NCBI GenBank assembly: GCA_040756875.1
Contig: JBFLYH010000002.1
Location: 158,526 to 222,525 of the forward strand
Direction: 5' to 3'
DNA: 64,000 nt
Source: a candidate division FCPU426 bacterium
GTDB lineage: Bacteria > Oederibacteriota > JAAXVQ01 > JAUVAV01
The notes beneath the pieces are model-generated. The model was given only the letters and a program-made list of their open reading frames with translations. It did no database searches and was not told the DNA's origin. Shown one piece after another: positions 22,852-46,786 of this stretch (positions are counted from its first letter, which is position 1; each line of letters begins with the position of its first letter). Both the position numbers and the translations under genes were made by a program.

Positions 22852-23589
22852 ATGACCCTTGGTCAATGCTTGGGAGTGGGTCTGTGTTCTGTTTCCTTGG
22901 CTGCGTTTTTACCTGTTGCTGTGACTGCGGAGAAAGGAAGCGCCATGAACCTTCAATTGGAAGCCGAAGTCGAACCGGCGGTCTGGCCTGCCAACAAAAT
23001 GCGCGACATCACCATTCGCCTGAGAATGACCAACAACTCCCCCCTGCCAGTCACCATTTACCCGGCGTATACCGCCCTGGCCTGGAAAGTATCAGTGGCC
23101 AGCATGGGCATGACCTGGGACCTCAAGTTCAAGCCCGAGGAGCCGGGCCTGAGCGCCTCGGGCCATGAGCTGCGGACCTATTACGGCCCCCCTGGCGAGC
23201 CGGTGAGCGAACTCGCCGTGCGCAAAGCCGGCAAGGTGCTCAAACCCGGGGCCGAGCACGTTACGACCTTGCAGGCTTGCTGGATTCCCCATGCACTGCT
23301 CCAGACTGAGCACTTGTCCATGCAAACGCTGGACCCGGAGGGGTTGGACAATCTCAGGTCCATACCCCAGTTCGATAAATGCTCGGTATTGGTTTTCGGC
23401 GCCAGCAGCGCGTGGATCAAGGATCATTCGAAGAGCAAGGAGATGTTACGGGGTTTTATGGTGGTTTTTTTCAGCGGTCCGGGCAGGTATACTCTGCGCG
23501 CGTCCTATCATCAAACTCCGGTCATGTGCAAGATCGTGGAGGAATTGAAAGCAGAGGCGACCGGTGTGGAAGTAGAGGCGGGAAAGTGA
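22852..23589 (+). CDS. Hypothetical exported protein (start 22852 or 22945)
   Basis: Long open frame; possible signal peptide; Ig-like PGRYTL motif. Confidence 0.6.
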   Translation: MTLGQCLGVGLCSVSLAAFLPVAVTAEKGSAMNLQLEAEVEPAVWPANKMRDITIRLRMTNNSPLPVTIYPAYTALAWKVSVASMGMTWDLKFKPEEPGLSASGHELRTYYGPPGEPVSELAVRKAGKVLKPGAEHVTTLQACWIPHALLQTEHLSMQTLDPEGLDNLRSIPQFDKCSVLVFGASSAWIKDHSKSKEMLRGFMVVFFSGPGRYTLRASYHQTPVMCKIVEELKAEATGVEVEAGK

Positions 23590-23758
23590 AACTCCCCGCG
23601 GACTTTGGTGAAGGGGGTCATGCGCTTGCGACCTCCGGGCTCAATGATACAGGTATTTCACCTCGATCTATGGTACCCTTCTAAAGGACACCAGCTCCGC
23701 CAACAAATCCCGCAAACCACTCACCGGCCAAAGGTCTTGCGGAGGGATTGAAAACCCA

Positions 23759-32518: not shown

Positions 32519-32596
32519 GCGGCTTCGGCGGGCGGAGCGCGGAGAAAAAACGGCCTCGGCGATCGTGCCGGCGAAACGGAAGCCAGCCGCCTGATT

Positions 32597-33631
32597 TCAT
32601 TCGTACTTCGGCTTGGTCATTTTAAAGATATTGCTTCTGATCGCAAAGTAAATGTACTTGTCGTCCACTGTCATGCAACGGCACCTCTGATCCTTCGTGT
32701 CTTCCACCAGCTTAATGCTGTCAGCACCGGTTTTCTTGAACCACACCCCGGACGTGGCCGAAACATACACCTGTTCCTCATCACAGGCAATACTATTGGC
32801 ATAAATGTCCGCGTCGCCGAACTGGGAAAACGTCGGGATCGGATAAGAGATTATCTTTTTATCCTCCAATCGAACCTCAACTAATTCGTCATTACCCACG
32901 CTCTTGGTATCGGCATAGTAAAAAGCCTTTTCATTGCCGGACATCGAGTAACACAAATAAATGCTTCCAAGGGTATAGATATCTGCAATATCCCGTTCTT
33001 TATCGCGCATATAGACCGTCGATCCTGCCGACCAATAAATGGTGTTTTCATCGACCCAAAGGGGCGCATCAATAAACGGCATATTGCCTACGATGCTGAT
33101 AATATCCCCGCCGGCTTTGGGGACCTTTATCAGGCTCATACTGACAACGCAATATACATTGTCATCATCAACGGTCAGTTTCGTGGGTATTTTGACATTA
33201 AGCTTTGTGTCGGCCGTATCCGCAAATTCGCTTGTTTCACCGCCGGATATCGGCATTTCGTAGATTTTCGTACTGTCATAATGCGTAAAGTATATTTTAT
33301 CGACATCCATGGCAAATCCTTTGATGGTTGCCGCAGATGACACTAGCGCTTCCAATTTCCCGCCATTCACACTCATGCGGGCTATATGCGATCGCAGAAT
33401 GACATAGAGATATTCTCCGCGGACATATAGTTGGTGGATTTCTTCAGGTGACTGACCGATGATCTTCGGATAACGGTACTTGTCTTTGGGTTTACCAGTC
33501 TTCGCCTTTGCATCACCCGCTGTTTTCCCTGCCCCGGCTTGGCTGGTTGCAGCCAGCGCGGGGATCGCGTGCATTGAAATCAAGCCCATTAAAACTACAA
33601 TCAGCCCTGCCAGTTTCCACACTCTGTTCAT
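32597..33631 (-). CDS. Exported beta-propeller-like hypothetical protein (lower GC)
   Basis: Signal peptide; repeated VDD..IY(F/W) and P..GG motifs; AGGAGG RBS. Confidence 0.7.
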   Translation of the reverse strand: MNRVWKLAGLIVVLMGLISMHAIPALAATSQAGAGKTAGDAKAKTGKPKDKYRYPKIIGQSPEEIHQLYVRGEYLYVILRSHIARMSVNGGKLEALVSSAATIKGFAMDVDKIYFTHYDSTKIYEMPISGGETSEFADTADTKLNVKIPTKLTVDDDNVYCVVSMSLIKVPKAGGDIISIVGNMPFIDAPLWVDENTIYWSAGSTVYMRDKERDIADIYTLGSIYLCYSMSGNEKAFYYADTKSVGNDELVEVRLEDKKIISYPIPTFSQFGDADIYANSIACDEEQVYVSATSGVWFKKTGADSIKLVEDTKDQRCRCMTVDDKYIYFAIRSNIFKMTKPKYE

Positions 33632-33751
33632 GTCAGCCTCCTGGTTTGGCAACCGCGTAGTTGTCTTTGGTTGCTAATCCCTTAGACTGGCAGGCAGGTT
33701 TTTCTATGCGGATTATTTTGTGGGGGATTTAGGGCGCGAGACGTTTCCGCT

Positions 33752-34579
33752 TTACGCTGATAAAAGGGCGATTTCCTCGGCGAACTTGGCGTTTAGCGCG
33801 CTGACCAGGTCGTCCTGATCGCCTGGCGGATACAAGGCAGCCGCTGCCATGGCCGCGAGTTCATGGGGCGAAAAGCCGGCCTCGATTCCAGCCTGTTTGG
33901 CCAGGCTGTCAGCCGCCCTGACCAGGCGCACCAGGGCGTCCTGCGCCGAGGGATCGTGGTGCTGGCGGACGACGTTCACCATGCTGTCCGGCAGCCGCCA
34001 GCGCGAGGCGATTTGCTCGCCCAGTTCGACGTGGTCCACCCGGGCGATCTTTCGCTCGGCCTCCGGAACAGTCAGGGCCCCGGCTTCCACGGCTTCGGCG
34101 ATCAGGCGGCGATAAGCGGCAAAACCCAGGGACCGGGCGATAAGGATCTTGCCGATGTCGTGGATGATGGCGGACGCAAAAGCCCCGGCAGGGATGGCGG
34201 GGTGGTAGCGCTGGCCGATCAGGTCGGCGGCCACGGCCGTGGCCACGCTGTGGCGCCAGATGTCGTTTTCCGCGGGATCGATGCCGCCGACCAGCTTGCG
34301 CACATTGGCCTGCAAATGGAAGGCAAAGGACAATTGCATGATATTGCGGGTCCCCAGGCGGACGACCGCATCGTGGACCGAGGTGATGCGCTCCGCGCTT
34401 TGGCTGTAGGCTGAATTCGCCCAGCGCAGGACGCTGGCAGTCAGGATGGGGTCCAGGGCAATCACCCTGGCGTAGGACTTGATGTCCGCGTTCGGGTCTT
34501 CCAACAGATTGGCCAACTGCAGCATGGACATGGGCAGCGGCGGCAGGCTGATGATGTCTGAGGTTTTTATTTCGGCCAT
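33752..34579 (-). CDS. Stand-alone HDOD domain protein
   Basis: LPPLP, DP.L...VLR.ANS, AV.RLG, WRHS, HDIGK, DH..LG....W.LP. Confidence 0.9.
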   Translation of the reverse strand: MAEIKTSDIISLPPLPMSMLQLANLLEDPNADIKSYARVIALDPILTASVLRWANSAYSQSAERITSVHDAVVRLGTRNIMQLSFAFHLQANVRKLVGGIDPAENDIWRHSVATAVAADLIGQRYHPAIPAGAFASAIIHDIGKILIARSLGFAAYRRLIAEAVEAGALTVPEAERKIARVDHVELGEQIASRWRLPDSMVNVVRQHHDPSAQDALVRLVRAADSLAKQAGIEAGFSPHELAAMAAAALYPPGDQDDLVSALNAKFAEEIALLSA

Positions 34580-34704
34580 AACGCTTTTCCGCCCTCTGGA
34601 CTGAATAAGGAAGCTTTAGCAGAGTATCGGCGGAAAAGCAGGGAGAAATTACACGAATTCTTTCATCGCTCCTGCCGGCAGGGCGAGGGAAAGAGCCGCC
34701 CCGT

Positions 34705-36834
34705 TCACCTGACCACGGCGAATTTGGCCGTGCAGTGCTTGCCCCCGGTCAGGAAGACGTGGGCCAGATAGACGCCGGTTGCGGCTTGGCTGCAATCCCA
34801 CGTTAAAACCAGGGTTTCCCCTGCCGCCACCCCGCTGAGGCTCGCCGCTTTGTCCCCGGCCACATTGTAAATGTCTATTTTCACTTCGCCCGGGGCCCGC
34901 AGTTTCACCAGGAACGCGGCTTGATTCTGCGCGGGGTTCGGGTAAACCAGCGCGGTATCCGCCGGAATGTCCATGGCCTTGGTGGGCAGGGGCGTGCTCG
35001 TGGTGGTCGGGCTGACAGTCGAGGTCGGGCTGATCGTCGATGTGGGGCTGATGGTCGAAGTCAGCGTAATGGTGGGCGAGGGCGTAATGGTCCGCGTGAC
35101 CGTGCGCGTCAGCGTGATGGTCGGCGTGGGCGAGATCGTGGCAGAAGGCGTGCGGGTCGGCGAGATGGTCGCGGTTGGCGATATGGTGGGAGTCGGGCTA
35201 ATGGTAGGCGTCAGGGTAATGGTCCGGGTGCTGGTCGCAGAGGGAAGGACGCCGCCATACTCATACGCGCCGATGTCCCACGCCGTGCTCTGGGGGCGCG
35301 TGACCCCGTCAAAATCCGTGGTAAACAGGGAGCTGAGATCCGTTCCGCCGTTGACCGCGTTGGCTGTCGCCTTAAGATGGAAATTGTAGGCCGACGAATC
35401 CACGAACGGGTCGGACGTCTCTGTATCAACCGGGTCGTACGGCCCGTAGATATTGTTGTAGTAGCCGGTATTGGTCATAGGCGGCCACAGGGTCCGGGTA
35501 TCCGTGAAATAGCCGTTCACCCAAATATTGTTTCTCGCGATGGTGCCGGTCGCATCCGAGGGCGTGACAATATTAATGGCCGCCTTCCCGATGTTATAGA
35601 ACGTGTTGTTGTCCATTTCCGCATAGGTAATCGAATTCCCGGCCGAGGAATAAATGGAGGTCGCCAGAAAATAGGCTGAGCGGCAAGGCACATAAAAGTA
35701 GAATTCGTCTCCTGCCTCGTTGAGCGCCCCGCCGGACATGCCGCCGGCTATGGCGAGGGTGGTCGTGCCGACCGAGGTAATGACGCCGGTGGCGCCTTTG
35801 GTGACATTGGTCAGCGTCCGGCCCAGCAGGTCCTCGTAATTGGAGAACATCCGGTACAATTGCGCAATGCTCGTGGCGGTTCCGGTGTCCGCCAGGCCGT
35901 AGACAATGCCGTCGCCGTTGTCGCTGTAGAAGATGTTGTTGTAAACCCTGATGTAGGTCGTGGTCACGCCGCCGAGGATCGAAATAAACGCCTGGCCGGT
36001 GGCATTGCGGAAGATGTTGTTCCTGAAGATCCCGTAGCTCAGCGGCCGCATGTAGAACTGGATCGTCTGGCCGTGGACATTGGGATACCGCATCCCCACT
36101 CCCCCGTTCCTTTCGATGACATTGTTTTCGATCAGGAGACCGTAATCAGAATAACTGGTCCCTTCGATGGTGCCCAGAGTGATCCCGTTTCTCGGGATTT
36201 CATGGATCCAGCAGTATTGAATGGTAAAGCCTTTCGAGCCGGCAATGGCCGAGTTCCAGTAAATGCCGTCGCCGCCCGTGGAGCCGTAATCAAATCCCGG
36301 CCCCTGGACGTCCAAATGGCGGAAAAGCCTGGGGCTGGCCGTGCCGGACGAAAGGGCAATGACCGCATTGAACCCTGTCCGGTCGCTGTCGAGGTGGATT
36401 TTGATCCCATGCCCCGTGGTCCCCGAGCCGGTCACGCCGTCAATTTCGACATATCCATTGTAGATCGACAAACGGCCGTTGATGACCGCCTGGTCCGCGG
36501 CGTAGGCCGCATTCCAGTCCGGATCGCTGCCATTGTCAGCGGCATTGGCTTTTTTAATGATGATCCAACTGGCGCCGGATTCAGAGGTGGGGATGAGCAC
36601 ATCTCCGTTGTAAGTTCCGCCGGCCAGATAATAGGTGTCGCCCCGGGTCCAGGTGACCGAGCTGAACGTCGTCCAGGCATTGGTCCAGCTGGAGCCATTG
36701 TTGCTGCCGCCGGCAGCAGCGCGGATATAATGGGTGGCCCCAAAAGCAGGCACATTCAGCAAAAGGATGGCAGACAGAACGATTAGTGTGCGGAATTGAG
36801 AAACCGGGAAACCGGGCGATTGAAAGCTCATCAT
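34705..36834 (-). CDS. Secreted parallel beta-helix protein with Thr/Pro linker and YPNP-type C-terminal domain
   Basis: Signal peptide; G.SW.NAW start; NN-rich beta-helix repeats; D..G..RP....WDIGAYE; TPT tract; VYPNPA. Confidence 0.85.
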   Translation of the reverse strand: MMSFQSPGFPVSQFRTLIVLSAILLLNVPAFGATHYIRAAAGGSNNGSSWTNAWTTFSSVTWTRGDTYYLAGGTYNGDVLIPTSESGASWIIIKKANAADNGSDPDWNAAYAADQAVINGRLSIYNGYVEIDGVTGSGTTGHGIKIHLDSDRTGFNAVIALSSGTASPRLFRHLDVQGPGFDYGSTGGDGIYWNSAIAGSKGFTIQYCWIHEIPRNGITLGTIEGTSYSDYGLLIENNVIERNGGVGMRYPNVHGQTIQFYMRPLSYGIFRNNIFRNATGQAFISILGGVTTTYIRVYNNIFYSDNGDGIVYGLADTGTATSIAQLYRMFSNYEDLLGRTLTNVTKGATGVITSVGTTTLAIAGGMSGGALNEAGDEFYFYVPCRSAYFLATSIYSSAGNSITYAEMDNNTFYNIGKAAINIVTPSDATGTIARNNIWVNGYFTDTRTLWPPMTNTGYYNNIYGPYDPVDTETSDPFVDSSAYNFHLKATANAVNGGTDLSSLFTTDFDGVTRPQSTAWDIGAYEYGGVLPSATSTRTITLTPTISPTPTISPTATISPTRTPSATISPTPTITLTRTVTRTITPSPTITLTSTISPTSTISPTSTVSPTTTSTPLPTKAMDIPADTALVYPNPAQNQAAFLVKLRAPGEVKIDIYNVAGDKAASLSGVAAGETLVLTWDCSQAATGVYLAHVFLTGGKHCTAKFAVVR

Positions 36835-37037
36835 TCCAACCCCCTTAGGGTGATTACTTTTAAGTATATCTTATATATTTTATCCAAGAGGCTAAAAATG
36901 ACGTGGAAGTGGGGAGATTATTTCAATGCGCGCAGAGCTTGAATAAAGAAAGCAACGAGGGAGTTAATTGGGATTTCCAAACGCGCCCCCATTCATTTAA
37001 TCGCCCCCTGCGCGTGTGTGAGGGCCAGGGTGTTTCA

Positions 37038-37319
37038 TTATGAAAAAGTACGGTTTGAATAAAGCTCCCTTTTCAGCATCTCTGCAATATATATTTTGAC
37101 CAGCGACTGATAGGGAACGTCTTTTTTATTGGCCAGCATTTTCAACTCGGCCAGCATGATCTCCGGCAAGCGGAGAGATATTGTCTTGCTTGAAGGCTTT
37201 AAATTCGGGAATACAACCTTCCGGCCTTTTTTCCAATTGATATACCGGGTCGAGTCCGCTTTCGACCAAAATTCCCTTTCTTGGTCTTCCTGGTTAAAGT
37301 GCTTGGCTTTCTTTTTCAT
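37038..37319 (-). CDS. BrnA-like/CopG-type antitoxin
   Basis: EREFW...DS, LKPS.K.ISLRLP, A.K.DVPYQSL; overlaps the brnT stop. Confidence 0.85.
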   Translation of the reverse strand: MKKKAKHFNQEDQEREFWSKADSTRYINWKKGRKVVFPNLKPSSKTISLRLPEIMLAELKMLANKKDVPYQSLVKIYIAEMLKRELYSNRTFS

Positions 37320-37621
37320 GACGCGCGATATTCCTTTCTTTCGTTTCTGTTCATATTCCGCGCTGAAATGACTCGTAATTTCCTGCCGCGAATCGTGAAT
37401 ACGACAAACAGCAGCCGTTTTTCATCGGTTTTCCCCAGCGCATAATAGCGTTTTTCCTGACCCGAATGGTTTTCATCGTCCGTCACCACCAGCGGCTCGT
37501 TGAAAAATACCTGCTCACATTCAATAGGTTTTACTCCGTGCTTCTGCCAATTCTTTTCAAAATTGCCTTGATCCCATTCAAATTCCGTACAATCCAGCAG
37601 AATGTCGTATTTGTCTGCCAT
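37316..37621 (-). CDS. brnT: BrnT family toxin
   Basis: FEWD.GN..KN..KHGV, HS..E.RY..LG, FT.R...RVISAR. Confidence 0.92.
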   Translation of the reverse strand: MADKYDILLDCTEFEWDQGNFEKNWQKHGVKPIECEQVFFNEPLVVTDDENHSGQEKRYYALGKTDEKRLLFVVFTIRGRKLRVISARNMNRNERKEYRAS

Positions 37622-37627
37622 GGTCTT

Positions 37628-37656
37628 AGTATATTCCTCCCATATACAGTTGTCAA
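37628..37656 (-). promoter_or_regulatory. Sigma70 promoter of brnTA
   Basis: TTGACA-N17-TATACT, 6 nt before the ATG. Confidence 0.7.
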
Positions 37657-37893
37657 CCCGGGACAATCCCTTTCAATTACCCTCTTCGCCAAAGGTTGTT
37701 TATGGGATTAGACGGAGCACACACGTTTTTCATGCGTTTTTCCATTGCCCTTACGGGGGAGACCGGGGCTTAACGGCTATTTAACCGTGTTTTGTTTTTT
37801 TCGAAGGGAGAGGGTGGAAAGTCATTTTTACATTCGAACAACGTCCCGGTTCACATCTATACATCCCCGTTCAGAGGGGCGCGTTTTGTGAGC

Positions 37894-38229
37894 CTATGCC
37901 GCATGGATTATTTTTGCAGATTTATTTTTATCGATGGTGAATGTCAGATTCATCCCCAGACAGCGAATGATTTTAAGGATGCTGCCGAGACTAGGATTCC
38001 CTTTTTTTGACGTTATATGATACAGGTTGTTTCTCGACATTTTGCAACTCTTCGCAAGTTCGGTCATATTGCCATGCGCCTGGGCGACGTTTCTCAAGGC
38101 AATACAAAGCACTTTTTGATCCCCGCCTGCCAAGGCGGCATTTAAATACTCCGCCGCCGCTTCCGGGTCCTTAAGGTAGTTGACCAGGTCTTTTTGAAAA
38201 CCAGCCTTATACGGCTTCAATGATTTCAC
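37894..38229 (-). CDS. Addiction module antidote, HTH XRE (HI1420-like)
   Basis: YL.AAL..GD....ALR.VA.A.G.M..LA....SR..LY.....GNP.L. Confidence 0.88.
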   Translation of the reverse strand: MKSLKPYKAGFQKDLVNYLKDPEAAAEYLNAALAGGDQKVLCIALRNVAQAHGNMTELAKSCKMSRNNLYHITSKKGNPSLGSILKIIRCLGMNLTFTIDKNKSAKIIHAA

Positions 38230-38243
38230 GAAAGCACCTCTTA

Positions 38244-38576
38244 TTAATCGTTGATTCTATCTTTATAATCACGCCAATATTCACCCGCAGTTTCAATATC
38301 CTTCTTCTGCGTTTTCTTGTTCCCTCCGCAGAGCAGGAGAATGATCGCCTTGCCGGTATGGGCGTAATAAATTCGATATCCAGGCCCGAAATCTATCCTC
38401 AACTCGCATACTCCCCGGCCCAGCGCTTTGTAATCCCCGGGATTTCCGACGCTCAATCGGTTTAAGCGTTCAATAACGATGCTTTTAGTCTTTTTCTCCA
38501 GGGACCCGCAATATAACCAATCGCGAAAAGGCAATCTCCCGTCCGGGGTTTGGTAATAAAGAAGTTGTTTTTCCAT
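38244..38576 (-). CDS. RelE/ParE family addiction module toxin (HI1419-like)
   Basis: G..PF..W, GN.GD.K, ELRIDFGPGYRIYY, LLLCGG.K.TQ..DI. Confidence 0.92.
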   Translation of the reverse strand: MEKQLLYYQTPDGRLPFRDWLYCGSLEKKTKSIVIERLNRLSVGNPGDYKALGRGVCELRIDFGPGYRIYYAHTGKAIILLLCGGNKKTQKKDIETAGEYWRDYKDRIND

Positions 38577-38594
38577 GCAAGCGATTACCTCTTA

Positions 38595-38623
38595 ATTGTA
38601 TTATATATATTACACTCAGTCAA
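38595..38623 (-). promoter_or_regulatory. Sigma70 promoter with overlapping near-palindromic operator of the TA operon
   Basis: TTGACT-N17-TACAAT; TGTAATATATATAATACA near-palindrome overlapping the spacer and -10 element. Confidence 0.6.
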
Positions 38624-38783
38624 GCTACCTTCCGAGGCTTGTTATTTGTATTTGACTTGTCTGCCGATTATTTAATGCGGGTAAAGTGGGGTTATTTTGA
38701 CAAGGAATTGGTACGCGCAGGATGTCGTGGCTGGCACCGGGTTAGTACAGTCATTTTGACATTTAAACAACGTCCCGGTTCAT

Positions 38784-39737
38784 TTATGAGTGGCTTATGG
38801 TAATAGCCACCCCTCCGGTTTTATGCCCTTCCTCAACATATTTATGTGCTTCGACTATTTTTTCGAGAGGATACGTTTTGTCGATGATGGGTCTGATTTT
38901 TCCCGCTTCGATCAATTGTGTTATAAAATCCAACCGCTTTGAATTTAACTTCAAGGCACCATCATCAATGGATATATACTTTCCTTTTTCAGTTAGCGCC
39001 TTTTTGCAGGCTTCTTTAAGCTTCGAGGTTCTATATTTACCCACCGAGTCCAAAATATAATCATATTTGACATTCGCCGCTAAAGAATCCGTGGTTGTAT
39101 AGTCCATTACATAATCTGCTCCGAGTGATTTAACTAAAGCCAGGTTTTTTCCGCTGCAAACACCCGTTACCTTAGCCCCTAAATATTTCCCATACTGTAT
39201 GGCGATGGTACCCGATGTGCCTGAAGCTCCATAAATTAGTATGCTTTGGCCTTTTTCAATATGACCCATATCCATGTATTGCAGAGCTAAAGAACCGCCG
39301 TACACTGCTGAAGTTGCTTCTTCAAACGATATATTTTTAGGTTTAATAGCCACACACCCCGTAGTGGAATCCGTCTCTTTTATGCAGGTGTACTCGGCAT
39401 ACGCGCCCAAATTAAATCCAGTCATTCCATAGACCTCATCGCCGGGTGAAAACCGCTTGATAGCCCTGCCGACTTTTTTTACTATACCCGAAAATACCAG
39501 ACCTATAATCGGCTTTCGCGGCTTGAAAATACCGATCATTAATCGAAACGGAATGATGATGGGAAAGGGCATTTTGGAGCTTCGTATAAATATATCGCTG
39601 TTGGTTACAGCAGAGGCTTTAATATTTATGAGCAGTTCATTATCTTTAGGCGAAGGTATTTCTACTTCAGCCAGATGAAGCACCTCGGCTGGACCGTATT
39701 GATTGCAAACCACCGCTTTCATTTTATTAACATCCAT
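38784..39737 (-). CDS. NAD(P)-dependent MDR family oxidoreductase (quinone reductase-like)
   Basis: MKAVV...YG..EVL, GAYAEY, ILIYGASG..G, P.ID..YPL...AH.YVE.GH. Confidence 0.9.
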   Translation of the reverse strand: MDVNKMKAVVCNQYGPAEVLHLAEVEIPSPKDNELLINIKASAVTNSDIFIRSSKMPFPIIIPFRLMIGIFKPRKPIIGLVFSGIVKKVGRAIKRFSPGDEVYGMTGFNLGAYAEYTCIKETDSTTGCVAIKPKNISFEEATSAVYGGSLALQYMDMGHIEKGQSILIYGASGTSGTIAIQYGKYLGAKVTGVCSGKNLALVKSLGADYVMDYTTTDSLAANVKYDYILDSVGKYRTSKLKEACKKALTEKGKYISIDDGALKLNSKRLDFITQLIEAGKIRPIIDKTYPLEKIVEAHKYVEEGHKTGGVAITISHS

Positions 39738-39917
39738 ATATGGCTCCTTGGTGCAGGTTTTACGCAGGCCGCAGCAGCGGCGGACCCCACAGGTAGCTGT
39801 TTCGTTAAATAGGTGACTGGCACCATTTATCCGGGCAACATTTTGACATTTAAACTACGTCCCGGTTTTTTTTAAACAACATCCCGGTTTAGTTCCGGTT
39901 TACCGGTTCATTCCGGC

Positions 39918-40670
39918 TCAAAAAGTCGCGGTCACGCCGATCACAGCGTAGTGAATCGCAGCAAAGCTGTAAACCTCCGCATTGTCCCCGCCTCCCTCCA
40001 CAAACCGGTACCCCAGCTTTAAACGCCAATGCTCGTCCGCTTGATATGTCGTGGCCAGCAATACATCCTCAGCGCGGCCTTGGGGCGCAGCCAGGGCTTC
40101 GGCCTCCAGGAGCAAGCCCCAGGGATGGGCAAACGTCCAGTCCGCGCGCAGATAAACCAAAGGGACAAATCCCACGTTCGTTTTGCTCGCCTTGGTGCCG
40201 TTGCCTTCCAAGCTGATCTCCGCATCGCGGATTTTGGCCGTCAAGCCGATATACGCCCGGGCTTGGGGTTCATGCCAGCAACGGTAGCGGTAGGTCAGGC
40301 GGTAGGAGTTAAAGCGGTAGAGCGCTTGCAACCGCGTGCCGGCTGGAAACCGCTGGCCGGCAAAATCGACCGGCGCCGAGATCTCGCCTTCGCCGCGCAA
40401 GCTCAACGGCGCTGCCAGCGCGCCCAGGGCCTGCGTTTCGGTAAAAGCGTAAAACAGCCGGATGCGGTAAAACGGCGACGGGGCGATTGCAAATGCATCT
40501 GACAGGGATATCTGCGTGCCGGTTTCGCCCGGAATGCGCGCAATGTTATATCCGCTATTTACGCGCCCGGTTTCCAGATCGCCTTCCCAGCTGCCGGCCC
40601 AGGCCTGGAGCGGCGCTCCCATCAGCATTCCGCACAAGATGACGATTGCATCCACCTTGATCATCCGCAT
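39918..40670 (-). CDS. Exported, probable outer-membrane beta-barrel protein
   Basis: Signal peptide; alternating beta-strand pattern; C-terminal Phe. Confidence 0.7.
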   Translation of the reverse strand: MRMIKVDAIVILCGMLMGAPLQAWAGSWEGDLETGRVNSGYNIARIPGETGTQISLSDAFAIAPSPFYRIRLFYAFTETQALGALAAPLSLRGEGEISAPVDFAGQRFPAGTRLQALYRFNSYRLTYRYRCWHEPQARAYIGLTAKIRDAEISLEGNGTKASKTNVGFVPLVYLRADWTFAHPWGLLLEAEALAAPQGRAEDVLLATTYQADEHWRLKLGYRFVEGGGDNAEVYSFAAIHYAVIGVTATF

Positions 40671-40821
40671 GGTTCCACCTCGCTTTGCGGGCTGCAACCC
40701 GCAACTCAGGATCATGATTTGTTATAGATTATTAACGTTAGCCCAATGGTTGGCAATGATTTTCCGCGCCACCCGCGCCTATCCGTACGTGCAGCGGAGG
40801 GATTAAAAGTCACTTTAAGCT

Positions 40822-41120
40822 CAGTTGAGTCTTTTCTAACACTCCTCACTCATTTTAAACCTCGAATGAAGTATTTGTAATTGAAGCTGCTCTGATGGGG
40901 ATAAAGGCGAGGGCGTCATCCGGACATTCGAACAACATTCCGGTTCATGTGATTTTAATACTTATATACTTATCTACGTCCCAGTTCACACCACAGTTGA
41001 GTCTTTTCCAACACTACTCACTCATTTTAAACTTCGAATGGAGAATTTATAATTGAAGCTGCTCTGATGGGGATAAAGGCGAGGGCGTCATCCGGACATT
41101 CGAACAACATTCTGGTTCAT
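40822..41120. repeat. 127-bp direct duplication (40822-40948 and 40994-41120)
   Basis: Two near-identical copies with a few substitutions; each ends in the 34-bp repeat. Confidence 0.95.
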
Positions 41121-41157
41121 TAAGTTAATAAGTCAACTCCGGCCCCGATCACCGTCT

Positions 41158-42081
41158 TCATTTGCCTTTTCTACAATCAACTGGTCTTTGTTGAGTTAGG
41201 ATTATTACATCACTTTCATTGTGAAATGAAGTAGTTACCATTTCCATGCGCCATTTTTGATATTCCCGAACTAAAGCTTCAATACCAGGCACCTCATTGA
41301 ATATCACATTTTCTTCGGCACATTTCACAACAAGGCTATTAAGCTCTCCTATTTTATCATCCTTTATTAATCTCATATCATCTGACTCTTTTACTTCATT
41401 ATGCGTCGGATGAATGAATAATGCTGTGCGAGGTGTCAAAGGGCAATAAAAATCGCAATATGGATTGCCTTCCCAATATTTCAGGCATACCGGATTATCG
41501 CTCGTAATAAAAGCCGTGGCCGACTTATTTATGAGGATCAGCCAAGGATATCCAATTAACTTCTGTCGCATTTTATCTAGATTTGATATTCCAAGCGCCT
41601 TAGCGAAATCTCTATCTACATCGACAGTAATTCCACCAGCCTCTCGTATTTTCTCAATAGCATCTTTATATTTAGAGTTGGGATTGAGTAATTCTTTCTG
41701 CTCAATTAAAGTTGCAGTCTGTTTTATTATTTCTGCCAATTGATTTTGGCCGAGTCTGGCCGCCGTGGGTGTATAAACTCTCAAAAAGGCAAGATAGCCA
41801 GCAATTGTTGATTTTAACTGATTATTAAAATTCCCCGTTTCTATCTTCTCAATACAATTTAGCCATTCGGGTTCGAAGTGTTCCAAATAGTCTTCAACAA
41901 TTCGAGGATTCGCCGGATAATAATTATTAGTACTCCAGTGATTTGGGCAACAGATCGTATTAATTGGGATAGAGTCCAATTTCTTTAAATCGCTTTTTCT
42001 TATTATGTTAACGTATCCAACATTACCAGGAATACTAAAACTCCTTAAATACGCTTGGGAAATATAGTGATCTCTAGGCAT
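41158..42081 (-). CDS. DUF4238-like protein
   Basis: N-terminal HYISQAYLR.F and FITSDNPV / PLTP..AL motifs; AT-rich. Confidence 0.8.
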   Translation of the reverse strand: MPRDHYISQAYLRSFSIPGNVGYVNIIRKSDLKKLDSIPINTICCPNHWSTNNYYPANPRIVEDYLEHFEPEWLNCIEKIETGNFNNQLKSTIAGYLAFLRVYTPTAARLGQNQLAEIIKQTATLIEQKELLNPNSKYKDAIEKIREAGGITVDVDRDFAKALGISNLDKMRQKLIGYPWLILINKSATAFITSDNPVCLKYWEGNPYCDFYCPLTPRTALFIHPTHNEVKESDDMRLIKDDKIGELNSLVVKCAEENVIFNEVPGIEALVREYQKWRMEMVTTSFHNESDVIILTQQRPVDCRKGK

Positions 42082-42200
42082 ATTCAGATTCAATCCCGGC
42101 TCTACTGTCAGTTGGTACCAATACCGCTCTTGGGATGAGTACCATCTCCAACATTTGATATCAGGGGGCACAATGCTTATTTAACCAACCTAGTCAGGAA

Positions 42201-43121
42201 TTAAGTATGTTGTCCCCCCGGAATCTGTGTTAAGTAATAAGCCCGTTCATACATAGATTCAACAATACTTCGCAAGCTGGGAAACAATGTATCCCTTGAT
42301 ATATTATGTGACTTAAGATACTCCAATACATCCACAGCAAACTTAATAGGGATCTTGTATTGAGTCATGGCATTAGTAATTCCAACTATTTCCTCATACC
42401 CTTTTCGTTGCGTTTCATCATCGGTATTAGCTAAAAAAGTATTTTTACCTTTCTGCGCGGACAGGTTCGGATTAAGGCTTCCTTGAATTGGAAATATGCT
42501 AACTTTTCCTTCTTCTAAAAGTTGCCTGTCTAATCGACAGACATAGAAAAACTCGGTTTTATGGTTCGCGCGACTTTTTTCAGCCATTTTATTATGTACA
42601 ATGGCATCACTCGCGGCAAAATACAAAGCCACATAAGAATAACTCGACCAATCAAGATATCTCGTCGGTAATCCGTAGTGTTGCGCCAAAGCGAATACTG
42701 CATTCCATGTAGCCTTTGGTTCGGAAAATTTAGGCCAACTTTGAAATCTAAGTTCAATACTTTGTGGGGTATCTGATGTACGTAAACTTAATAAATCATC
42801 GCGAAATCGCGAATCGTCACCAGGCAATGGCACTCCCGCATCATCAGTTAAATGAATAAATCTATTAATAATGCGAAATTCTATGTAATTTTGTTGAACT
42901 TGTGGGTTAAGTTGCGCGTATCTATCTCTTTCTTTTTGAGTATCAAGAATTAAGGGTTTTAATAGTTCAATTTTACTATCCGCGTCAGTTCTTAATGAAG
43001 ACGGAATAAGCTTTTTATCTGTTCCCTGACCCCTATATAGGAACTGATCCGATATCGGAACTTCGGGTTTTAATTTAGTAAAAATAGCTTCAAAAGTATC
43101 AAAATTATCATCTGTAATCAT
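42201..43121 (-). CDS. FRG domain protein
   Basis: LYRGQ, L.PS, AQHYGLPTRYLDWS...VALYFA, N.N..AQ.G, LFP. Confidence 0.9.
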   Translation of the reverse strand: MITDDNFDTFEAIFTKLKPEVPISDQFLYRGQGTDKKLIPSSLRTDADSKIELLKPLILDTQKERDRYAQLNPQVQQNYIEFRIINRFIHLTDDAGVPLPGDDSRFRDDLLSLRTSDTPQSIELRFQSWPKFSEPKATWNAVFALAQHYGLPTRYLDWSSYSYVALYFAASDAIVHNKMAEKSRANHKTEFFYVCRLDRQLLEEGKVSIFPIQGSLNPNLSAQKGKNTFLANTDDETQRKGYEEIVGITNAMTQYKIPIKFAVDVLEYLKSHNISRDTLFPSLRSIVESMYERAYYLTQIPGGQHT

Positions 43122-43239
43122 TTTAATACGCCTCCAACGCCTCTTAAATCGCCTTACTAAGACACGGGACACCATACCTTATCCAAGAATAATAAAAGGT
43201 GATCCAGCATTTTATTTTAAATATATTTCCTACGTCTAC

Positions 43240-43842
43240 CTATTTATCAAGATACCTCTTCATGTCTTTTCGCATTAATAGCGGTATTTTCTCATTCAAT
43301 AATTTAACCTTAATGGAATCGGGATCATCCAATATTACGTTTTGTGCTATTTTATTTTCAATTAGCTTTTTCGACCATTCCGGTGTTTTATCAATTACTT
43401 TTTTCATCGATCTAATATATTCATCAATAGTCTCATATAATTCTTGGGAACATATTATTTTGAGTTTTGAAAAACTATTATTTAATTTGTTTATTAATCT
43501 ATTTGTTTCTATTAATGAGCTCACTAAATAATTTCCACTAAAATCTTCTAAAACCGCCTCAACATTTTCACCTTTTAATATTCGAGAAATCATTCCTGAT
43601 ATTCCTTGCGAACTTTTTTTAGTAGATTCTTCAAGTAGGATATTTATTTCCTCAAACACTCCTAGTGTTTCTGTATATTTTTGATAACGAATGTCAAATG
43701 TTCGTCTCCGCTTCTCTTCTATTTTATTGAACCACCAACTTATAAAAGCGCTCACTACTACACTAATAATCAATGGAACCAATCCACTAGTAATCAATGG
43801 AACCAATATTTCTTTCAATATTTCTGTTGTTTCTTCACTCAT
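43240..43842 (-). CDS. Hypothetical N-terminally anchored helical protein (very AT-rich)
   Basis: One TM segment followed by a coiled/helical region; AGAGG RBS. Confidence 0.7.
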   Translation of the reverse strand: MSEETTEILKEILVPLITSGLVPLIISVVVSAFISWWFNKIEEKRRRTFDIRYQKYTETLGVFEEINILLEESTKKSSQGISGMISRILKGENVEAVLEDFSGNYLVSSLIETNRLINKLNNSFSKLKIICSQELYETIDEYIRSMKKVIDKTPEWSKKLIENKIAQNVILDDPDSIKVKLLNEKIPLLMRKDMKRYLDK

Positions 43843-43943
43843 ACTTATAATACCTCTCTATTTGGGAATATTTATTAGAAGGCTATATTTCTCCCTAACT
43901 TTTTCCCGCATTATACTCCCCTCCCCCTCAATTTCTACCACTA

Positions 43944-44108
43944 ATGGAGCCCCCCGACCGGGTGTTCAGGTCCGGGGCACCGAAGTCGGCCATACGTACT
44001 CATCATGGCCGACCGGCGACATCCCCGTAGCAGATAAGTCCAATATACCTCGGGCATCAACCCCGAGGTCTTCTGCGAAGGGGACCACGTGCACAGCCCT
44101 GCGGAGGG
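43944..44108. other. Structured element B, homologous to the insertion at 13933-14049
   Basis: Shared blocks ATGGAGCCC, GGGCACC, GGCGACATCCCCG.AGCA and GCCCTGCGGAGGG in the same order. Confidence 0.7.
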
Positions 44109-44161
44109 CGTAGGGCAGAGGAGCAGAGCAGCAGAACAGCGGAGCAGGTGATAGGGTTGCA

Positions 44162-44250
44162 GTCATTGCGAGGAGTCCCCAGGGGGGCGACGCGGCAATC
44201 TGATTATGAACGGCAAGATTGCTTCGCACCAATTTCGCGCTCGCAATGAC
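44162..44250. repeat. GTCATTGCGA...GCAATC/GATTGC...TCGCAATGAC palindromic repeat; second copy at 45979-46061
   Basis: Nested inverted repeats; two homologous copies. Confidence 0.8.
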
Positions 44251-44257
44251 ATTTACT

Positions 44258-44371
44258 ATGAGGGGACCTATTGTGCGCGCCAATAAATTCCTTGGGGATT
44301 TCATGTTTCGGCTTAGTTATAAAGAGTTTTCCGCTTTGATATCACGTTTTGTGATATCAAATATAGTTTAG
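44258..44371 (+). pseudogene. ORF6N-domain gene fragment
   Basis: Translates to ...NKFLGDFMFRLSYKEFSALISRFVIS, resembling the ORF6N 'RFP.DFMFQL..EE...L.SQ.VTS' motif; only 37 codons. Confidence 0.6.
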
Positions 44372-44560
44372 GAGCATTTCGGTAGGACAAGCTTTATTGG
44401 TACATCACACGATAAAAATAGACCCTCTCCCCTAGCCTCCTTGGATTTCCACCCTCTCCCTTCCCCTCTCCCCTCAAGGGAGAGGGGATAAAGAGAAGTA
44501 AGGATTAATTGAGTAGGTAATTAGTTCAAGAGAGGATAACCATAGTTACTACTGCGAAAT

Positions 44561-45304
44561 TCAGGCGGTTTTTTTAGGAGTGTTGACGACTACCGGCAGT
44601 TTGCCTTTCCAATCAGCCCACATCTTCGGATTCACCACCAGCTCGCACATCACATGCGCCACGTTGGCCATGTTGGTACTACCTGGCTTGAAAAGGCTAT
44701 CCACCAGACCCTCATGCAAGGAGTACTCCGAGACCTCGCCTTCCAGGAGCGAGTCAGGCCGGACTGCCACCCACTGAATAAAAGCATTATTCTGCCCGAT
44801 CTTTTTGATCAGGAAGTCCGCGGCCTGCTGGTTGTCTTTGGCAGGGGGCAGCACGTTGCAGAGCAGCCAGAGGAACACCCTTTCAAACGAGCCCCGGCGC
44901 GTATCGAGGCGGTTTGGGCGGTTGACCGAAACGCTGCTCATGAGGATAAACTTGACCGGCGCAGGCGGTTTAAGCGCCTCTATGCCCTGGCACAGGTGCT
45001 TCACTGCTTTCGTGACCAGTTTGTGCGGCGGCCCGAAGACCCCTTTAAGGCTGATATTGTGGCCAAGGCAGGAAATAACCGCATCGCAGCCAGCCAAATG
45101 CTGCTGCAGGTCCTTGGGTGGCAGGGAAAGCAGGTCAGCCTCGATCACGGTCAGGTTGGGCTTCCCTACAACCTCAGGTGGAAGCCTTTTGCCTGAGCGC
45201 ACGATGGCGCGGACATTGATGCCGCGATCCAGGAGTTGCTGCAATGCGCGCCGGCCTGTGCGTCCGGTAGCGCCGACCAGAAGAACGGTTTGCTGTGTGG
45301 GCAT
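44561..45304 (-). CDS. NAD(P)H-binding atypical SDR family protein
   Basis: VGATGRTG, DAVISCLG, WVAVRP motifs. Confidence 0.85.
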   Translation of the reverse strand: MPTQQTVLLVGATGRTGRRALQQLLDRGINVRAIVRSGKRLPPEVVGKPNLTVIEADLLSLPPKDLQQHLAGCDAVISCLGHNISLKGVFGPPHKLVTKAVKHLCQGIEALKPPAPVKFILMSSVSVNRPNRLDTRRGSFERVFLWLLCNVLPPAKDNQQAADFLIKKIGQNNAFIQWVAVRPDSLLEGEVSEYSLHEGLVDSLFKPGSTNMANVAHVMCELVVNPKMWADWKGKLPVVVNTPKKTA

Positions 45305-45359
45305 GGCCCACATTATACGTTCCTCTTGTACCAAGGGGGAATATTTTATTGGTAGATTC

Positions 45360-45389
45360 TGTAGGGGCGTTCAATTGAACGCCCCTACA
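45360..45389. repeat. GTAG-type REP-like perfect 30-bp palindrome
   Basis: TGTAGGGGCGTTCAA|TTGAACGCCCCTACA. Confidence 0.8.
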
Positions 45390-45471
45390 AATGATAATAT
45401 TTAATAAAAATAAAAGGGGCGCGGGAAAATCCCGCGTCCCTGGGACACGCTCATGCCCTTTCCAGCCAAGC

Positions 45472-45843
45472 TTATGCCTTCCCTGTTGGCTTGTGCCCTA
45501 GCCTGCCAAAGATAATGGCCGCTGACAGCAAAGCCACAACCAGCCAATAAATAATGGAGCCGATTTCCAAGGGACCGATAAAAACACTTAACCCCGTAAA
45601 AAACAGCATTTCCGTGGTTATAAAGGCCGCGGAAACCGGGGCCAGAACGCCCAGTCTCTTGAATACCGGCAGGATCAGGCCCACACTGGCAAGCAACTCG
45701 ACCACGCCCAGGCCCAGCCAAAACCCATGCGGAAGCACTTGCAAGGCTGGTATCATCTGCTCGGAATTGCCAAACTTCCAAATCGCGCCGGTCAGGGTGT
45801 GAAAAGCCAGCAAGCCTTGCAGAACCCATAATAGGATATTCAT
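45472..45843 (-). CDS. DoxX family membrane protein
   Basis: MNILLWVLQ.LLA, G..K, G.VELL...GLILP; AGGAGG RBS. Confidence 0.85.
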   Translation of the reverse strand: MNILLWVLQGLLAFHTLTGAIWKFGNSEQMIPALQVLPHGFWLGLGVVELLASVGLILPVFKRLGVLAPVSAAFITTEMLFFTGLSVFIGPLEIGSIIYWLVVALLSAAIIFGRLGHKPTGKA

Positions 45844-46094
45844 GGCACCCTCCTGCGACTGATGTCCGTACTTATTAGACACCGTCAAGGCAGAACACGC
45901 CCCCTCCCCTTCATCCCCTCTCACAAAAAATCCAGGGGAGGGGGATAAATGAGAAGGTGTGCAGTTGACGGCATTGCAGTCATTGCGAAGACCGGAGGGA
46001 CGCGGCAATCTGATTTTTCCACGGCGGGATTGCTTCGTCCCCTGCAGGGACTCGCAATGGCAATCAGGAATGCAATCGATGTTTATAATATGGA

Positions 46095-46427
46095 TCAGCG
46101 GTTTTTACGGGCAGCCAGGGCGAAGTGCATGAAGTACTTCCTCCAAGAGGCGTCAATGGCGGGGACTTGCTCGTTGCCAATGTAATCACCCAGGAAGGTT
46201 TCTCGCAGACGGGCAATTTCCTTCAGCCGTTTCGAGTGCTTAGGGTCAACCAGGGTTAATTCGATGAGTTCCAAGGCGCGGTTAAAAGCTTTACGGCTTA
46301 ATTCCGGATTGTTTTTCGTTCGCCAGGAGAGAAACCGCTCCACTTCACTGCCGATATTAGCCATTTGCGCGATCAAGGTCATCTGCTGCCAGCGGCCTAA
46401 AGCGAGTTCCTGGTGCTGAAAGCTCAC
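46095..46427 (-). CDS. Conserved-looking small helical hypothetical protein (H..LA.GRW...QMANIGSEV.R)
   Basis: GTG start overlapping the upstream stop; 110 aa. Confidence 0.75.
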   Translation of the reverse strand: MSFQHQELALGRWQQMTLIAQMANIGSEVERFLSWRTKNNPELSRKAFNRALELIELTLVDPKHSKRLKEIARLRETFLGDYIGNEQVPAIDASWRKYFMHFALAARKNR

Positions 46428-46765
46428 GGTTTAATCCTTTTCGCGACAATATCCAAAATCTTCCGGCGAATGCTTTCGTCTTCCACTCCGCGGCTGGGAT
46501 TACCCTGCCTGGGTCGTATGTTGATCAAAGAATCGAACTCCACTAAGTCCTGGGAAGGCAAAGCAGGATAGAGGTTAATACCCCAGATGTGCTCCTGTTT
46601 AGAACCATCCTCAATTAACAGCGCTTCCAGGTCGGCGTGTAATTCCGCATCCAGAGCGACAAGGTCACGCTGAATATCCACAACCGCTTTTACCATGTCT
46701 CCAAAGGAATGATCGGCCATGATTTGTATTTCGGCAAGCGGTATTGAGGCGGTTACGATAATCAT
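46424..46765 (-). CDS. DUF5674-like protein
   Basis: KAVVDI, ELHADLE..L...GS.Q..IWG.N, FDSLINIRP.QGN motifs. Confidence 0.75.
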   Translation of the reverse strand: MIIVTASIPLAEIQIMADHSFGDMVKAVVDIQRDLVALDAELHADLEALLIEDGSKQEHIWGINLYPALPSQDLVEFDSLINIRPRQGNPSRGVEDESIRRKILDIVAKRIKP

Positions 46766-46786
46766 AAGTATTTCCTTTTGCTAGGT

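Follow-up and report, generated by a model that had tools for sequence, protein, structure and literature searches.

Probable solo end sequences of a TIRYT-class Y1 transposase as direct repeats between gene modules in a strain-variable bacterial island

Introduction

To which element do the short direct repeats belong that separate unrelated genes in a variable island of a candidate division FCPU426 bacterium, and did they have a part in bringing these genes together? The question is raised by a stretch of 64,000 nucleotides (GenBank assembly GCA_040756875.1, contig JBFLYH010000002.1, positions 158,526 to 222,525 of the forward strand), referred to below as the window, in which a repeat of about 34 bp recurs in a single orientation between positions 37,821 and 41,120. 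The initial annotation took this repeat for the recombination site of a local gene-capture array, neither attC nor CRISPR, whose enzyme, either a tyrosine recombinase or a HUH transposase related to the RAYTs (transposases associated with repetitive extragenic palindromes, REPs), would be encoded elsewhere. We consider it very likely that the repeat, here called TIR-1, is the terminal inverted repeat (TIR) of a Y1/HUH transposase of the TIRYT class, in other words the end sequence of a TIRtron that is also present as solo copies. The manner in which the array was built is a separate matter, on which claims of lower strength are made below. Throughout, G000 denotes the window's own genome (contigs C1-C3, scored 100% complete) and G001 a congener.

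A Y1 transposase gene framed by the repeat

Two Y1_Tnp matches are found in the G000 genome. TIRYT-1, encoded by an intact gene outside the window (G000:C1:1033652-1034659), is a Y1/HUH transposase of 336 aa (PF01797, E 8.4e-11) in which the HVH and RYIHLNP motifs are present. Its gene lies between inverted TIR-1 copies at C1:1033666-1033694 (minus strand) and C1:1034706-1034739 (plus strand), and the inverted repeat around it measures 26 nt, with the arms GGGGACGTTGTTTAAATGTCAAAATG and GGGGACGTTGTATAGATGTCAAAATG. This framing of a Y1 transposase gene by inverted copies of the repeat supports one half of the original guess, that of a RAYT/HUH enzyme. As to the other half, a tyrosine recombinase, the genome has only two such enzymes, which match XerD at 341 bits and XerC at 326 bits. 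Searches of the G000 genome for serine recombinases (PF00239) and for IS110 (PF02371) gave no match each.

When scored against NF047646 (REP_Tyr_transpos), TIRYT-1 reaches 79.8 bits, the cut-off being 80. At its C-terminus there is a weak Bac_DnaA_C match (E 4.8e-6; 26.9 bits, under the Pfam cut-off of 31.5), and residues 246-302 match TIGR00362 DnaA (E 2e-4). With NF033573 (transpos_IS200), TIRYT-1 gives no match and its paralogue TIRYT-2 just 16.2 bits, against a cut-off of 55. TIRYT-2 (G000:C1:1039807-1040787) is 42% identical to TIRYT-1, is located 6 kb from it and is framed by its own end sequence, TIR-2. Some 90 nt beyond the downstream (3'-side) TIR are nearly identical in both TIRtrons (…CGACCCCTCGGCTGATGTAGTAGATGGCGAGG…GGCACCCCC; C1 ~1033.6 and ~1039.7 kb), and thus the two transposase genes occupy equivalent positions beside duplicated secreted-protein operons.

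TIRtrons and TIRYTs were named by Di Nocera, De Gregorio and Rocco in 2013; passages of that paper (PMC3733652) state that some TIRs share the sequence GGGGWSAS and speak of "moderately abundant families of TIRs", found as singles, dimers or groups. The class, solo TIR families included, is therefore one that was already described at that time. According to passages of Quentin et al. (2018, PMC6006769), subclass 2.1 of TnpA-REP proteins, with Bac_DnaA_C/helix-turn-helix (HTH) tails (HTH_23, HTH_28), probably corresponds to most TIRYTs, and is found in 14.9% of strains. The TIRtron described here very likely belongs to the TIRYT class of the former study and to subclass 2.1 of the latter.

Anatomy of TIR-1 and of related ends

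Read on the strand that starts with GGGAC, TIR-1 combines TRAWNN as its outer motif with GGG(G)ACG as its conserved head and a tandem pair of 7-8-mers (AAATGTC-A-AAATGTC); from the head onward it reads GGGGACG-TTGTTT-AAATGTC-A-AAATGTC. The six bases outside the head fit TRAWNN in forms such as TGAACC, TGAATG and TAAATG, and the TIR family of G001 has TGAAT at the equivalent outer position.

Folding each of the five window copies as a single strand, in both senses (10 folds), gives z values of -1.1 to +1.4 relative to shuffles; as the folds are no better than the shuffles, TIR-1 is neither an attC site nor a REP hairpin, and the initial annotation was right in separating it from the former. The fold has a single stem of 6 bp, formed in GACGTTGTTTAAATGTC and including one G·T pair, and AACGTCCC contains the letters CGTC. 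A hairpin GACGTT...AATGTC with G·T pairs was also considered as the main recognition feature, and was dropped because the folds do not beat the shuffles and because the tandem 8-mers are conserved family-wide.

The same architecture recurs far beyond this genome. Homologues of TIRYT-1, with 34-58% identity, occur in Elusimicrobia, Omnitrophota, Desulfobacterota, Actinomycetota and Chlamydiae, and among homologous loci of other phyla with enough flanking sequence the best flanking inverted repeat contains GGGAC in 34 out of 42, typically ~50-130 nt upstream of the transposase start. Within the same bacterial family GGGAC is found in the best inverted repeat at no fewer than 11 of 18 loci; each of the 11 genomes carries between 1 and 8 TIRYT paralogues with a TIR of their own, none of which is TIR-1. 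In 24 of 35 TIRs the head is followed by tandem 6-8-mers, mostly with a period of 8, the mean best match being 4.5 versus 2.2 in shuffles. Direct clusters of solo TIRs are seen elsewhere too, in Pelotalea chapellei (3 copies in 0.6 kb) and in a Desulfatiglandales metagenome-assembled genome (3 in 4.4 kb).

Copies in the window and in the genome

The five same-orientation copies first noticed were recovered by repeat finding together with a partial one, all six on the plus strand and 65-100% identical to copy 1. A degenerate 22-nt pattern, with up to 3 mismatches allowed, hits the same six sites on the plus strand and has no match in any of 100 shuffles. In the following list, the coordinates in brackets are those of repeat finding unless otherwise said, and E values are from nhmmer.

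37817..37855, plus strand: TIR-1 copy 1 (37820-37853), E 6.6e-8; the written strand is CATTTTTACATTCGAACAACGTCCCGGTTCA, and the outer end is directed at the HI1420-type antitoxin gene, whose stop is at a distance of 38 nt
37856..37876, plus strand: apparent truncated TIR-like head just outside copy 1, the minus strand reading TGAACGGGGATGTATAGATG
38749..38784, plus strand: TIR-1 copy 2 (38749-38782), E 2e-9
39833..39868, plus strand: TIR-1 copy 3 (39836-39869), E 1.2e-7
39858-39891, plus strand: partial copy, 3' half alone, from repeat finding
39871..39920, plus strand: ever-shorter TIR heads AAACAACATCCCGGTTTA, TCCGGTTTA, ACCGGTTCA and TCCGGCTCA, E 0.056 for 39871-39893, between copy 3 and the stop of a 265-aa gene
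40911..40948, plus strand: TIR-1 copy 4 (40914-40947), E 2.7e-7, closing the first 127-nt unit
40950..40990, minus strand: a third TIR type, TIR-3, with the head TGAACT GGGACGT AGATAAGT ATATAAGT, from reading of the sequence
41083..41122, plus strand: TIR-1 copy 5 (41086-41119), E 1.2e-6, closing the second 127-nt unit
41120..41147 (also given as 41120-41145), plus strand: TIR-2 copy TTAAGTTAATAAGTCAACTCCGGCCCC, abutting copy 5; TIR-2 is the end repeat of the second TIRYT paralogue

Successive copies are spaced by 929, 1087, 22, 1056 and 172 nt (22 being the distance to the partial copy) with entire genes within; this irregular spacing and the genes inside exclude a CRISPR array, as had been asserted from the outset. 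Copy 2 is identical to the copy at C1:109102 over 34 nt and to that at C3:159038 over 32 nt (100% in both cases). The TAA stop of the oxidoreductase gene, said to abut this copy, is indeed 1 nt away from it (TAA-A-TGAACC). The unit of ~170 bp closed by the copy at 40,915 does lack a gene, as described; it is in fact part of a 172-bp tandem duplication, with 127-nt units at 40822-40948 and 40994-41120 that are 94% identical and each end in the repeat. The supposed scar at 40975-40990 has to be reassigned, as it belongs to the head of TIR-3 and is not a partial copy of TIR-1. The TIR-3 head is an orphan within G000, and a 33-nt stretch is 97% identical in the purM island of G001.

A motif had also been noted before two of the copies, and it is present inward of them as GTGGCTGGCACC at 38727 and GTGACTGGCACC at 39813. 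In the general form G(G/A)CTGGCACC (38727-38738, 39813-39824 and G000:C1 ~110050) it is located inward of two TIR-1 copies and one TIR-2 copy, at a distance of 12-15 nt. Its opposite strand, GGTGCCAG, resembles the head GGTGCCGG of the TIR family of G001, and the motif could be either a TIR head that has degenerated or a -24 box of the sigma-54 kind.

In the whole G000 genome a strict pattern finds 14 copies, and reversed-pattern controls none. A profile built from 26 copies returned 30 matches, 29 of which were kept (E < 0.1) and one dropped (E 3.0). These 29 copies, 27 of them solo and 2 framing the transposase gene, are distributed over ~10 loci on the 3 contigs and on both strands, so that the choice set beforehand between a local capture array and a REP-type family falls on the side of a dispersed family of the REP/TIR type. 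The copies cluster as direct repeats: there are 8 at C1:109-116 kb, all on one strand, 6 in the window, 5 at C3:156-167 kb and 3 in tandem at C2:398.5 kb, the remaining loci being pairs or singles. All 29 of 29 copies are in flexible DNA of low GC content, with values of 0.40-0.59 over ±1.5 kb.

In each of the three tandem units of ~86 bp at G000:C2:398509-398714, a TIR-1 copy is accompanied by a GCCCTGCGGTGCAGGGC hairpin and a purine-rich stretch; the units are located upstream of an open reading frame (ORF) of 784 aa.

Outside these genomes, a 19-nt pattern, GACATYYRAACAACGTCCC, has 6 single matches in the public genome_contigs and 8 in the metagenome_contigs, none of which extends convincingly past the pattern; no foreign TIR-1 arrays appear in these two scans, although the collections may lack records close to G000. 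Judged by these searches, the TIR-1 family appears to be new and confined to this lineage.

Junctions and comparison with a congener

Ten pairs of copies share more than the core, and in 9 of them homology breaks off within 0-8 nt of the outer end, which has the form TRAWNN|GGGAC; the one exception is a tandem array. On the inner side homology continues for 34, 57, 82, 127, 467 or 821 nt. The longest of these belongs to two yhcG-type modules, 85% identical for 821 nt starting exactly at the TIR-1 outer end; the shorter yhcG copy is cut off where a TIR-2-headed segment with a GNAT gene begins. No nucleotide homologues of the yhcG module were found in 10 related genomes. Several copies have an ORF that terminates within the junction or right beside it (gaps of -5, -3, -2 and -1 nt); in one reading frame, TGA or TAA comes from the TRA of the outer motif.

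The congener shows the same hot spot with a different end sequence. The purM/purF flank is 84% identical between G000 and G001, the other bound of the zone lying at ~23587 in the window; between these limits G000 has 23.2 kb and G001 ~10 kb of unrelated DNA, in agreement with the expectation that the cargo varies among relatives. In G001 the zone contains, in 9 direct copies, a TIR family peculiar to that genome, whose enzyme is encoded at G001:C2:98339-99355, and all 9 of them, like the 6 window copies, point away from purM. TIR-1 itself has 29 copies in G000 and 1 in G001, which has no TIRYT more than 42% identical; conversely, 18 copies of the TIR family of G001 are present in G001 itself, and G000 has no more than 3 weak matches to it, a TIR-2 copy among them. 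The abundance of a TIR family follows the presence of its enzyme.

At a second shared locus, the TIR-1 copy of G001 is directly followed by a segment, X, which in G000 comes after TIR-1 and 6.5 kb of genes (GC 0.28-0.45). The break is GGTT(C/T)A|.

How might the array have been built?

We lean, if only slightly, towards the view that the array was built by breakage and joining at the outer ends of TIRs. In the mechanism proposed, TIRYT-1 would act in trans on solo TIRs, with its putative HTH tail reading the tandem 8-mers and its HUH domain making a single-strand nick at the outer end. Where two TIRs of the same strand are broken and rejoined, the DNA between them would be added, deleted, duplicated or transferred, so that direct TIRs would come to frame gene-sized modules. 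Such a mechanism would explain why junctions are sharp at the outer end and arrays direct, and also the presence of tandem duplicates and of TIR-head remnants on the outer side (37856-37876 and 39871-39920). It can be likened to the activity of HUH replication initiators, which release the DNA between two direct origins, and to that of IS200/IS605 enzymes, which join two ends on one strand. That TIRYT-1 is the enzyme catalysing these reactions is a more tentative assignment, about which we are rather doubtful. From the junction anatomy, gene capture by recombination at the repeat seems plausible. It is possible, and in our estimate unlikely, that TIRYTs run a second, HUH-based gene-cassette system, in which a single-stranded circle formed between direct TIRs would be re-inserted at another TIR; hot spots like purM would then gather and shuffle toxin-antitoxin (TA), defence and surface-protein modules.

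Several observations weigh against construction by breakage and joining. The passages of PMC3733652 and PMC6006769 considered here report no active TIRYT, and the head of TIR-1, GGGGACGT, fits GGGGWS and fails at the last two letters of GGGGWSAS; that of TIR-2, GGGGCCGG, does not match this motif either. Neither an excision product nor a circle was seen in the contigs of the one sequencing run that covers the locus, probably that of the source sample; these contigs break at the repeats, and a single joint, 38776>41124, has a shorter side of 25 letters that ends in the repeat, and hence says nothing about excision. The clustered copies are not independent events, given tandem duplications of 172, 472 and ~86 bp. 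The placement of copies 3' of genes, also part of the initial annotation, stands in part: when ORFs are called simply as the longest reading frames, a crude procedure, only 19 of the 29 genomic copies have their outer end towards the stop codon of an antisense ORF, with gaps of -5 to +209 nt, and 8 or 9 of the 29 are in the reverse relation to genes or in none. Within the array of G001 genes run in both directions. Finally, the 6.5-kb difference at the second shared locus has no TIR at its far end, so that a simple circle of one TIR plus gene fails there, and the difference is explained equally well by an adjacent deletion in G001 and by an insertion in G000.

The main rival holds that solo TIRs are non-autonomous elements of 34 nt, comparable to REP singlets, which spread by themselves into permissive, AT-rich intergenic DNA of islands without moving genes. 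The islands would have been acquired otherwise, the direct orientation would stem from strand or replication bias, and the duplications from slippage or RecA recombination between 34-bp repeats. We hold this to be unlikely. In its favour, and to the detriment of breakage and joining, the copies at C1:109102, C2:197274 and C3:159038 are identical over 31-34 nt and share no flank on either side, which fits a TIR moving alone in the manner of a miniature element; likewise, from 41146 to 40911 on the minus strand, TIR-2, TIR-1, TIR-3 and TIR-1 are stacked head-to-tail, three types in all, without any gene between them. The mixed orientation of genes suits it too, as do the tandem duplicates of 172, 472 and 86 bp when regarded as products of unequal crossing-over between direct repeats. 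By our own count, based on GC skew, the GGGAC strand is on the lagging-strand template at 19 of 27 solo copies; counted in the same way by cluster, polarity relative to replication direction agrees in ~5 of 9, which likewise sits badly with breakage and joining. Replication-strand bias as the cause of the direct orientation was considered on these two counts, and they are not decisive. What passive elements fail to explain is that, for 9 of 10 pairs, the homology shared by the longer copies stops at the outer end, that the TIR-2-headed segment replaces the 3' part of the yhcG paralogue and does not interrupt it, and that different TIR families share one polarity at one hot spot in two congeners.

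Two further explanations appeal to tyrosine recombinases. Integron-like arrays, with the repeats as unusual attC sites of the CALIN type (clusters of attC sites lacking an integrase), would account for unrelated same-strand cargo with TA pairs and candidate defence genes, and for repeats 3' of genes. XerD and XerC score just 136 and 125 bits on TIGR02249, versus a cut-off of 265, so that no integron integrase is present; the folds contain no stable or conserved hairpin, no inverted partner repeat stands beside the copies, and the repeat frames a Y1 transposase gene, all of which makes this explanation extremely improbable. Scarcely more credible is a system of Xer-dependent modules, with the repeats as dif-like sites (dif being a 28-bp site with XerC and XerD arms) at which XerC/XerD would insert and excise modules, for which IMEX elements (integrative mobile elements exploiting Xer recombination) and pdif modules offer a comparison. 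It agrees with XerC and XerD being the sole tyrosine recombinases and with the 17-mer GACATTTAAACAACGTC being a partial dyad, in which 5 of 8 positions pair. The canonical dif site, AAGTCGCATAATATATATTATGTTAACT, is nevertheless found at G000:C1:787911-787938, ~78 kb from the cumulative GC-skew maximum of C1; TIR-1 is without the ATAA-N6-TTAT core, its copies are spread over ~10 loci and not at dif, and the TIR architecture is common to Y1 transposase loci across phyla.

Neighbouring genes and other features of the window

The ORFs beside the window copies are all on the minus strand, and both the ORFs and their family matches agree with the identities first proposed for the HI1419/HI1420-type pair, the oxidoreductase and the DUF4238-like gene. 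The variable zone and its genes are as follows.

23588..46786, no strand: hypervariable zone between conserved flanks, including a 2919-aa ORF and a low-GC island
37038..37666, minus strand: BrnT/BrnA (CopG antitoxin) toxin-antitoxin pair, inward of copy 1
37894..38576, minus strand: cargo module 1, a Gp49-like toxin (38244-38576) and an HI1420-type HTH antitoxin (37894-38229)
38784..39737, minus strand: cargo module 2, a zinc-type alcohol dehydrogenase/oxidoreductase, GC 0.42
39918..40715, minus strand: cargo module 3, a 265-aa, probably secreted protein ending in ...TATF, GC 0.60
41158..43175, minus strand: cargo past the array, DUF4238 (41158-42171) and an FRG-domain protein

The cargo differs in GC content, as had been observed, with values of 0.45, 0.42, 0.60 and 0.38 versus 0.59-0.62 for the contigs. 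The 265-aa protein, which has a signal-like N-terminus, a C-terminal Phe and no match to a Pfam family, is plausibly a beta-barrel, as predicted; its gene has a homologue in G001 (69% identity) in ordinary DNA of GC 0.6 with no TIR nearby, which is uninformative. The DUF4238 protein matches PADLOC DUF4238-Pers (E 9.5e-9) and the FRG-domain protein matches PDC-S15 (E 2.2e-26), which makes the two candidate phage-defence cargo.

Further features of the window concern neither the repeat nor its enzyme. The 2919-aa ORF of the strain-variable zone (23759-32518) has a 3' end (30001-32518) without nucleotide match in G001. At 35005-35230 imperfect 18-nt periodic repeats, with 7 copies of a 76-nt register, fall in the gene for a 709-aa protein with a C-terminal sorting domain of the type IX secretion system (T9SS). 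A hairpin repeat, CCCCTCTCCC...GGGAGAGGGG, is present twice (44440-44492 and 45897-45957) and belongs to a family that is multi-copy in G001, the purM island included. Long palindromic repeats, GTCATTGCGAG...CTCGCAATGAC with the core GCAATC...GATTGC (44160-44252 and 45976-46065), form a separate family, dispersed in G001 too. A perfect 30-nt palindrome, TGTAGGGGCGTTCAATTGAACGCCCCTACA, at 45360-45390 is 100% identical at several G001 sites on both strands, and is possibly a shared bidirectional terminator or another mobile hairpin. Relatives of purM are no more than 60% identical and are distributed over many phyla. An Rfam scan of the window at gathering thresholds gave no match.

Comparison with known systems

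Among the matches listed, PMC3733652 and PMC6006769 are the only works on TIRYTs and TIRtrons, and among those listed on HUH transposases with gene cassettes or genomic islands none deals with such arrays. The passages of these two papers considered here mention neither a tandem 8-mer TIR body, nor direct arrays that frame cargo in strain-variable islands, nor different TIR families with a shared polarity at one hot spot of two congeners. With TIRtrons the present system shares a Y1/HUH transposase that exceeds RAYTs in length, a GGGG-type motif at the start of the non-palindromic inverted repeats around its gene, and moderately abundant solo TIR families, with several paralogues per genome and a TIR for each; the C-terminal HTH of TIRYTs has a weak match here. 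It differs in its head, which is GGGGACG(T/G) and not GGGGWSAS.

REP and REPIN-RAYT systems, reportedly treated by Nunvar in 2010 and by Bertels and Rainey in 2011, resemble it in having a domesticated-looking Y1 transposase between inverted short repeats that are dispersed intergenically, mostly downstream of genes. REPs, however, are hairpin palindromes, usually inverted doublets in hundreds of copies, whereas TIR-1 folds no better than shuffles, has 29 copies and forms direct clusters; the stable hairpin with a GTAG or CGTC tag typical of that group is lacking.

The "peel and paste" elements of the IS200/IS605 group, such as IS608 and ISDra2, are flanked by the motifs TTAC and TTGAT, and have subterminal hairpins at direct ends, a small TnpA and often tnpB. 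They are alike in the Y1 HUH enzyme, in two direct ends on one strand and in a short flank motif (TRAWNN here), and insertion next to a specific short sequence could give same-orientation stacks; the present system is different in having no subterminal hairpins and no tnpB, a gene framed by inverted ends and a putative extra HTH domain.

Integron cassette arrays and CALINs have same-orientation repeats between unrelated small genes and vary among relatives. Here, too, same-orientation repeats part unrelated small genes, TA pairs and candidate defence genes among them, in an array that varies between relatives. In contrast, both IntI and an attC structure are missing, the repeat is part of a transposase end and, according to the junction anatomy, it is the 5' edge of the following module and not the 3' end of the preceding gene.

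Y1 transposases of the TIRYT and RAYT type are widespread, and the literature passages considered here do not state what they move. Should TIRYTs mobilise nothing, TIR-1 would be a repeat family that is new but otherwise ordinary, within a known class. TIR-1, the TRAWNN|GGGAC junction and the tandem 8-mers are defined substrates for asking whether they mobilise anything, and the two TIR families, each abundant only with its enzyme and of the same polarity at module joints of the same hot spot, amount to a natural experiment. If the gene-cassette reading were true, it would give a first function to a large orphan class of "domesticated" Y1 transposases, and would provide a functional parallel to integrons, built on a transposase end instead of attC and IntI.

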